The position numbers were made by a program, and so were the translations under genes. This document shows positions 3,044 through 3,613 of a stretch of 4,109 nt of DNA, in pieces (the stretch's first letter is position 1; each line of letters begins with the position of its first letter). Origin of the DNA: a virus (taxonomy: Duplodnaviria > Heunggongvirae > Uroviricota > Caudoviricetes); IMG/VR virus record IMGVR_UViG_2778261176_000018, positions 1 to 4,109 of that record, one strand, 5' to 3'. The notes below the pieces were generated by a model. That model worked only from the letters and a program-made list of their open reading frames with translations, did no database searches and was not told where the DNA came from.

Positions 3044-3076
3044 AATAACCCGTGTATATACGGGTTATTTTTCTTT
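3044..3076. terminator. rho-independent terminator, probably bidirectional, between convergent transcription units
   Basis: Perfect 9-bp stem ATAACCCGT (3045-3053) / ACGGGTTAT (3060-3068) with a 6-nt loop GTATAT, extendable by an A-T pair (3044/3069), followed on the plus strand by TTTTTCTTT (3068-3076). On the minus strand the same hairpin is followed by a weaker U-rich tract (TTATTCATGGTTTTAGTTT). The hairpin overlaps the stop codon of the minus-strand CDS at 3065-3067. Confidence 0.65.
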
Positions 3077-3613
3077 ATCGCCATCTTTTCTTGATTTGAA
3101 CAATCCACTAACAACGAAGCCAACCAAACCAACAATGCTAATTGTACTTGTACCTAGTAATGCAACGATTGCTTCAACTGGAGGCTTTCCTTCATGAGCA
3201 ATAAGAAACGATACAAACATTACGGCTACAAATAAGCACCACCACGACATAAAACAAACCGTGAATGATGCCATTTTTGTCCGAAGTTCATTGTCTATTT
3301 CTTTACCAGTTGCGTCAGCTATCTTATCGCGTACTTGTGATTTGAGCATATCAAGCTGAGCTTGAAGACTGTTCATTCTGTGCTGCTGCATAAACTCATG
3401 CAATGCACCTGTATTAGAACCAAACTCTTCTTCCTCCAGAATAGCTTTATTTTCTGAAGAAGAATCATCATCGCTCTCATGATTAGACGGCTCAAATGCA
3501 GATTTAAAAACCTGTTCTTGACTGTCAGTATAGTTTAAGGATGCTTCAGAGCGACCATTTTCAACACCTGCAGCCGCTCCGATAAGTTTATAGATATCTG
3601 AATTGCGAGACAT
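3065..3613 (-). CDS. membrane protein with two C-terminal transmembrane helices; candidate toxin/abortive-infection effector
   Basis: ATG (complement of 3611-3613) with AGGGA 4 nt upstream on the minus strand; stop TAA (complement of 3065-3067). 182 aa with a soluble N-terminal part including an acidic/Ser-rich stretch (ESDDDSSSENKAILEEEEF) and a coiled-coil-like segment, then two hydrophobic segments of about 23 and 25 aa (FTVCFMSWWCLFVAVMFVSFLIA and AIVALLGTSTISIVGLVGFVVSGLF) separated by a short loop, ending in a basic tail KSRKDGDKEK. Lies 22 nt downstream of the Panacea-like gene on the same strand. Confidence 0.6.
   Translation of the reverse strand: MSRNSDIYKLIGAAAGVENGRSEASLNYTDSQEQVFKSAFEPSNHESDDDSSSENKAILEEEEFGSNTGALHEFMQQHRMNSLQAQLDMLKSQVRDKIADATGKEIDNELRTKMASFTVCFMSWWCLFVAVMFVSFLIAHEGKPPVEAIVALLGTSTISIVGLVGFVVSGLFKSRKDGDKEK

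Follow-up and report, generated by a model that had tools for sequence, protein, structure and literature searches.

A natural allele of the membrane toxin PanT, paired with a Panacea antitoxin, in an Escherichia coli lambdoid prophage

Among toxin–antitoxin pairs that contain a Panacea antitoxin, the validated Escherichia coli 'Membrane' pair consists of the toxin PanT (WP_000019185.1; PanT(Esc. col.)) and the antitoxin PanA (WP_000287252.1; PanA(Esc. col.)) (PMC8832971, Table 1), and is assigned, as the pair of E. coli STEC O31, to cluster T3, with the antitoxin gene ahead of the toxin gene and a gap of 22 nucleotides (nt) (PMC8832971, Dataset S1). Expression of PanT(Esc. col.) stops growth and inhibits transcription, translation and replication together and indiscriminately; the inner membrane is depolarised, as reported by DiSC3(5), and its permeability to SYTOX Green is raised, which the authors read as the formation of large pores (PMC8832971). 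The cognate PanA neutralises the toxin and non-cognate PanAs fail, apart from a PanA(Vib. har.) evolved to T36M and Q131L, which rescues in part; ClpXP and Lon are reported to be dispensable for PanA neutralisation, the pairs assayed not being listed in the main text (PMC8832971). Here we analyse a 4,109-nt stretch of DNA from a Caudoviricetes virus (positions 1 to 4,109 of IMG/VR record IMGVR_UViG_2778261176_000018), hereafter called the window. Its minus-strand open reading frame (ORF) at 3065–3613 is, by sequence comparison, PanT, a natural allele of PanT(Esc. col.) and the toxin of a two-gene PanA–PanT cassette (PanAT).

Several other described systems share parts of this design. PanT_D11 of Bartonella choladocola (PanT(Bar. 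api.), WP_077993242.1; cluster T12) also depolarises and permeabilises the membrane and is neutralised directly by a stand-alone Panacea protein (PMC8832971, PMC10440598); T12 was not clustered with T3 by FlaGs and the authors suspected homology only (PMC8832971). The type I membrane toxin HokB is a small hydrophobic inner-membrane depolariser that causes the same pleiotropic shutdown in labelling assays (PMC8832971), and SocA, of the type VI pair SocA/SocB of Caulobacter crescentus, is a ClpXP adaptor (PMC8832971). The Panacea/SocA domain is common to SocA and PanA; PanT differs from the toxin of that pair in being a membrane protein, with neutralisation reported as protease-independent. The DnaN replication clamp is the target of SocB, a soluble inhibitor. 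TisB is a second small depolarising type I toxin, and both HokB and TisB, which have no homology to PanT, are single-helix peptides of ~30–50 amino acids (aa) under antisense-RNA control, with no protein antitoxin. The RexA/RexB pair of phage lambda is expressed from the prophage and joins a depolarising membrane protein to a cytoplasmic partner that controls it; RexB has four transmembrane (TM) helices and RexA activates rather than neutralises it. RexA/RexB has no sequence similarity to PanAT and serves as a 'works like' comparison for the abortive-infection role proposed below. Class II holins and pinholins, such as S21 of phage 21, combine two TM helices, oligomeric lesions and a charged cytoplasmic C-terminus in proteins of 65–95 aa whose genes belong to the lysis cassette and whose action an antiholin isoform regulates, whereas PanT has 182 aa, a large acidic cytoplasmic N-terminus, a gene outside the lysis cassette and separate control by a Panacea protein.

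The validated toxin was located in RefSeq annotation, which was read allele by allele in order of falling DNA identity: in strain STEC1588, WP_000019185.1 (L009:601-1149) is annotated beside WP_000287252.1, and the latter is present at the same locus in many strains. Window PanT is identical to this toxin at 171 of 182 residues (94%) in a gap-free alignment (E=4e-128), and window PanA to its antitoxin at 153 of 157 (97%). The two cassettes occupy the same prophage locus and have the same protein lengths, gene order and 22-nt gap, and in PhiR47_1, a phage record of 2025, the orthologues bear the names PanT and PanA; a paper that mentions phage PhiR47.1 contains no discussion of PanAT. Because of these two identities, the order, the gap and the PhiR47_1 annotation, we regard the ORF as an allele of the characterised toxin. 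Membership of cluster T3 is further indicated by full-length homology, an adjoining PF13274 gene, and an acidic N-terminus with two TM segments.

The reading frame itself is real. PanT matches phrog_13343 over its full length (E=1.9e-111), and RefSeq annotates the same 549-nt coding sequence (CDS), with the same coordinates, in all ten E. coli chromosomes whose annotation was read; the ORF lies exactly at the position given by an earlier reading made from the letters of the window (the sequence-only reading). Of 5,426 complete E. coli genomes, 79 contain panT DNA, each in one copy on the chromosome, and the mean pairwise ratio of non-synonymous to synonymous substitution rates (dN/dS) among nine alleles, 0.16, indicates purifying selection. 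The sequence-only reading could not place the protein in a named family and considered its architecture unusual; it can in fact be placed, in PanT cluster T3 (Kurata et al. 2022, PMC8832971), and a charged N-terminus followed by C-terminal TM segments is a layout already described there. That reading also proposed a membrane-depolarising effector partnered with a Panacea protein, which published experiments on the 94%-identical allele bear out. The object is thus already known, since the toxicity of a near-identical allele, its neutralisation and its pore activity at the membrane were described in 2022; the family conservation map, the phage-borne context and the cassette-swapping slots set out below are what the present analysis adds.

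General searches were uninformative about PanT. Nothing in Pfam, NCBIfam or PADLOC scored above threshold for the protein, and a profile search of the PDB gave chance matches only (E ~0.5). Weak Pfam matches to DUF677, DUF2207_C and DUF2975 lay far below the cut-offs, look like matches between hydrophobic sequences, and were rejected. Foldseek comparison of the PanT model with viral models returned none with E below 3, and a fold search is not meaningful here because the model has a predicted template-modelling score (pTM) of 0.28.

The upstream gene encodes a protein with the SocA_Panacea domain (PF13274, E=6.2e-18) and a GPV motif (Y56-G57-P58-V59) that is invariant in seven aligned partners. 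The PanA partners of PanT relatives are 44–60% identical to window PanA, and dN/dS for panA is 0.03. All four differences from the validated antitoxin (T126A, P136S, D137N and T142A) fall within aa 121–157, encoded at window positions 3636–3746. The dN/dS ratio is 0.33 in aa 121–157 and 0.00 in aa 1–120, and the C-terminal end of PanA may track variation in the toxin.

The topology of PanT was judged from hydropathy and AlphaFold2 modelling. The first 113 residues carry a net charge of -10 (isoelectric point (pI) 4.6) and comprise, in the model, a helix at 4–21, a disordered acidic Ser/Asp/Glu-rich stretch at 22–53, a helix at 54–66 bearing the motif KAxxEExxF, and, from a long helix, the soluble part (68–113), at whose end lies the conserved juxtamembrane motif G..IDN.LR; the predicted local distance difference test (pLDDT) score is below 50 over residues 19–53, which are predicted to be disordered. 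The acidic patch noted in the sequence-only reading is present (ESDDDSSSENKAILEEEEF, aa 46–64, with 13 of 19 residues D, E or S), and its second half overlaps the subfamily-conserved KAxxEExxF helix. The clustering is only modest, because 61 of 5,000 shuffles of the soluble part reach the same D/E/S density and 287 of 5,000 match it for D/E alone. The two hydrophobic C-terminal helices are also upheld, by 19-residue Kyte–Doolittle means of 2.27 (aa 120–138) and 2.22 (aa 149–167) and by an AlphaFold2 hairpin of helices 68–139 and 146–176 (pLDDT 78–85), the hairpin being the one part of the model that is confident. By contrast, the segment taken for a heptad-like coiled coil is part of the single long helix 68–139. 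Its heptad-period hydrophobic moment lies below the shuffle mean (z = -0.9 for aa 68–113; z = -1.9 for aa 83–110) and the best register places hydrophobic residues at 7 of 14 a/d positions; we do not call it a coiled coil, because heptad periodicity is no higher than in shuffles. Describing the tail as lysine-rich overstated its composition, since KSRKDGDKEK contains five K/R and three D/E residues (net +2).

Lysine and arginine are distributed in agreement with the positive-inside rule, with eight on the two cytoplasmic flanks and one in the loop. Because of this distribution, and because there is no signal peptide, an N-in/C-in topology is predicted, in which PanT would be anchored by a C-terminal helical hairpin and have both ends in the cytoplasm. 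TM2 has its small residues concentrated on one face of the helix (moment 4.7; shuffled sequences, 2.24 +/- 1.13; p ~0.02), a face that would fit helix–helix packing in an oligomer.

TM2 is also the part of the protein that relatives preserve. A word-indexed search recovered 68 clusters, all from Enterobacterales where the source was named, and 37 of them were aligned as the family, in the alignment that also served for the AlphaFold2 model. Measured over relatives 31–67% identical overall and one 92% allele, TM2 (ALLGTSTISIVGLVGFVVSGLFK) has a mean column conservation of 0.95 and an entropy of 0.23 bit, and it remains ~95% conserved even where overall identity is 31–45%. By segment, dN/dS is 0.04 in TM2 and 0.26, the highest value, in TM1, which is moderately conserved and retains invariant F121, M122, W125, C126, F128 and V129. 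The first ~100 residues are hypervariable in sequence and length, the invariant positions of the N-terminal region being E60, G103, D107, N108, L110 and R111. Nevertheless, every one of the 37 relatives in the alignment has an acidic pre-membrane region, with net charges from -2 to -14; the C-terminal tail differs in sequence between members and is about neutral in the family as a whole. The sensor or regulatory role that the sequence-only reading suggested for the N-terminus would thus fall to a stretch mostly predicted to be disordered and hypervariable.

Beyond this family, a HMMER profile search reached 309 representative clusters (E<=0.001), whose proteins are mostly 110–150 aa long and match in the C-terminal module only. 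The GLVGF..KGLF signature of TM2 is kept in these remote relatives. The KAxxEExxF motif, with its invariant E60, is conserved within the Enterobacterales subfamily; we do not claim it for the superfamily, because its sub-profile matched 3 of 143 remote representatives at E<=0.01. Ten remote relatives that were checked matched no named family. The wider superfamily consists mostly of proteins of 110–150 aa whose common feature is the C-terminal helical hairpin alone, and Pfam has no family for any of them.

The window covers the early-left end of a lambdoid prophage of E. coli, and panA and panT lie on its minus strand, convergent with the plus-strand early-left genes. Between the two converging units is a hairpin (fold energy -12.7 kcal/mol, z = -3.1) whose 5′ arm contains the panT stop codon, and which is probably a bidirectional terminator separating the convergent transcripts; an Rfam search of the window matched no RNA family. 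A sigma-70 promoter with 12 of 12 consensus positions (TTGACA, 16 nt, TATAAT) stands ~160 nt upstream of panA, beyond the right end of the window, and was read in a genome 100% identical over window positions 3000–4109 (L003:10268-10295); a GGAGGG Shine–Dalgarno sequence follows it, before panA. The promoter sequence suggests strong expression of panAT that is independent of the phage early operon.

Three sequenced phages carry the cassette (OQ243220.1, KF030445.1 and PV340566.1), one of them Stx2k-converting, with panA and then panT placed between int–attP on one side and xis on the other. The phages concerned are dusA-integrating lambdoid phages, and in the prophage the cassette abuts a dusA remnant. 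The circular phiSTEC1575-Stx2k genome has the order integrase, attP, panA, panT, xis, and because of this order the integrase and the xis-like gene lie at opposite prophage ends in lysogens. The validated E. coli pair, at the same locus, is therefore phage-borne despite its label of 'NotPhage' in Dataset S1 of PMC8832971, which was assigned with PHASTER from four genes on each side. In sister prophages next to dusA or zur, the slot flanked by attP and the PrtN-like xis gene is filled differently: one holds another Panacea protein, of 190 aa, with a soluble 128-aa ORF and a 57-aa ORF downstream, and another a YafO-family toxin with a 179-aa partner. The attP-adjacent slot looks like a hotspot for swapping toxin–antitoxin or defence cassettes. 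The rest of the window, positions 1–3031, is highly mosaic, with methyltransferase, Ea22, DUF551 and exonuclease modules that recombine freely; parts of the window are matched in 4,181 of 5,426 complete E. coli genomes, and at least 80% of it is covered in one place in two only. The features are collected in Table 1.

Table 1. Features of the window and of related loci. Positions are those of the window unless a locus handle (L) precedes them.
Feature	Position	Strand	Remarks
panT, 182-aa membrane toxin, cluster T3	3065..3613	-	ATG start, TAA stop; allele of PanT(Esc. col.)
PanT cytoplasmic N-terminal region, aa 1-113	3275..3613	-	Predicted from AlphaFold2 and charge
Acidic patch ESDDDSSSENKAILEEEEF, aa 46-64	3422..3478	-	13/19 residues D/E/S
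TM1, aa 114-139	3197..3274	-	Predicted; hydropathy up to 2.27; AlphaFold2 pLDDT ~80; continuous with cytoplasmic helix
Periplasmic turn HEGKPPVE, aa 140-147	3173..3196	-	Predicted; AlphaFold2 loop 140-145
TM2, aa 148-172, AIVALLGTSTISIVGLVGFVVSGLF	3098..3172	-	Predicted; nearly invariant; face of small residues
Cytoplasmic tail KSRKDGDKEK, aa 173-182	3068..3097	-	Predicted; mixed charge
panA, stand-alone Panacea (DUF4065/SocA-like) antitoxin, 157 aa	3636..4109	-	CDS complete; start codon is the last three window bases
panA-panT spacer, 22 nt	3614..3635	-	AGGGA, Shine-Dalgarno-like, at 3618-3622, 4 nt before panT ATG
Hairpin between xis-like gene and panT	3043..3070	both	Terminator-like signals on each strand
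DNA methyltransferase, Ead/Ea22-like, DUF551, 3'-5' exonuclease and PrtN-family excisionase-like (xis-like) genes		+	
Sister-prophage slots	L034:6545-7746, L036:6815-8016, L035:7029-8019		Equivalent to window 3032-4109
PanAT homologue loci in P2-like prophages	L013, L016, L022, L025		

A Panacea gene lies directly upstream in all ten relatives inspected (four remote ones and six of the close family). Five of these six are carried by P2-like prophages, where gpA, in some cases together with DinI, is on one side and the portal gene on the other, a position described as a hotspot of anti-phage systems (PMC9122126). The neighbours of these homologues include a reverse transcriptase, a pair of genes of a cyclic-oligonucleotide-based anti-phage signalling system (CBASS; DncV-like and Cap15) or a DUF4145 gene. 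A Providencia prophage member lies between the Q antiterminator and a holin gene, and another relative within a tail-gene cluster.

Taken together, identity, topology, pore, inhibition, expression and role form an account of the locus that, as the best overall explanation, we hold with high confidence. Expression of the cassette in the lysogen is probable and would not depend on the phage early operon, because it has its own strong promoter and an attP-adjacent position at the prophage end. PanA would hold PanT inactive, probably by blocking its insertion or its oligomerisation. The likeliest role would be abortive-infection defence or the exclusion of competing phages, with prophage stabilisation as the alternative. 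For the biology specifically, we tentatively propose that the T3 PanAT pair is a prophage abortive-infection or exclusion system and not a simple addiction module: PanA would sense an incoming phage and free the N-terminal handle of PanT, and the TM2 pore would kill the cell before the intruder replicates. The location of five of the ten relatives in the P2 hotspot, the attP-adjacent swapping slot and the cassette's own promoter are consistent with a defence role, for which the argument is one of association.

A number of points weigh against the overall account. Two of its steps we infer: that the near-invariant, small-residue-rich TM2 packs against copies of itself to make an oligomeric pore, and that the acidic N-terminal 113 residues, which are largely disordered and lead into a helix continuous with TM1, are a handle for cytoplasmic PanA. 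Our literature search turned up no work on phage defence by the pair, and in PADLOC-DB v2 PanT matched no model and PanA gave a chance-level match (E=0.021). The published pull-down complexes are of five other PanAT pairs, the E. coli pair not being among them (PMC8832971). Window PanT differs from the validated toxin at 11 positions, three of them in TM1 (C120W, W124C and V131G). Finally, PanA is weakly basic (pI 7.8, net +1), and charge complementarity with the acidic patch is for that reason not obvious. That the patch is the surface bound by PanA is nonetheless plausible by analogy with Bartonella PanT_D11, for which Panacea is predicted to sit on the N-terminal unstructured region and the short pre-membrane helix, a contact model supported by the PanA point mutants Y56A and H120E, which abolish neutralisation (PMC10440598).

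A purely addictive role is a serious alternative, and one that we regard as a real, if somewhat doubtful, possibility. PanAT would then be a selfish module that stabilises the prophage by post-segregational killing once the prophage has been excised or lost, and has no part in defence. The classical two-gene layout, antitoxin then toxin, on a mobile element is what such a module would look like; a YafO-family toxin–antitoxin pair fills the same slot elsewhere, and we found no published defence phenotype. Against it, the P2-prophage homologues lie in a hotspot enriched in validated anti-phage systems, beside CBASS and reverse-transcriptase genes, and Ernits et al. (PMC10440598) favour a sensor role for Panacea, defence having been shown for the related membrane-toxin system RosmerTA; both arguments are associations.

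With regard to how PanA acts, it is improbable that the pair works as a SocAB-like type VI system in which PanA is an adaptor that feeds PanT to ClpXP and the disordered acidic N-terminus is a degradation handle. PanA does have a SocA/Panacea domain and matches the NCBIfam profile SocA_antitoxin (NF047745) at E=1.5e-28, PanT has a long disordered N-terminus, and the authors of PMC8832971 note that the two mechanisms need not be mutually exclusive. However, the profile score of 99.7 is well under the equivalog cut-off of 190, ClpXP and Lon are reported to be unnecessary for PanA neutralisation (PMC8832971), and PanT has no similarity to SocB.

It is also very unlikely that the window allele is inactive or attenuated, a reading prompted by its 11 differences from the tested allele. 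The three in TM1 (C120, W124 and V131 in place of W120, C124 and G131) fall in the segment with the highest dN/dS, 0.26, but the same three residues occur in E. coli chromosomes or strains (STEC309, FWSEC0008 and further cluster members, three in all) and in an E. albertii protein. The reading frame is intact and TM2 and the juxtamembrane motif are unchanged. Moreover, PanA is retained under strong purifying selection, which is expected only with an active toxin. Least credible is a holin or lysis-timing protein, a two-helix N-in/C-in permeabiliser acting at the end of the lytic cycle: the two TM helices, the charged tail and the formation of pores recall class II holins, this topology being the sole holin feature present, but the 'holin-like' suggestion of the sequence-only reading fails on gene context and family membership. 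The panT gene adjoins attP, outside the lysis cassette; it converges on the early-left operon and has a promoter and a terminator of its own. Small holins have no counterpart of the cytoplasmic N-terminus of 113 residues, and neither Pfam nor PHROGs gave a holin match. In addition, the gene is paired with Panacea at all ten loci, and a Providencia homologue coexists with a separate Phage_holin_3_1 gene.

These results close the question of what the protein is, which the sequence-only reading had left unplaced, and the interest that remains is for the toxin–antitoxin and phage-defence fields. The invariant TM2 and the hypervariable acidic N-terminus offer targets for mutagenesis of, respectively, the putative pore and PanA specificity. 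Because the attP slot and the P2 hotspot exchange toxin–antitoxin and defence cassettes, a defence role is directly testable. If the defence reading is true, the classification of the validated E. coli pair would change to phage-borne as well.

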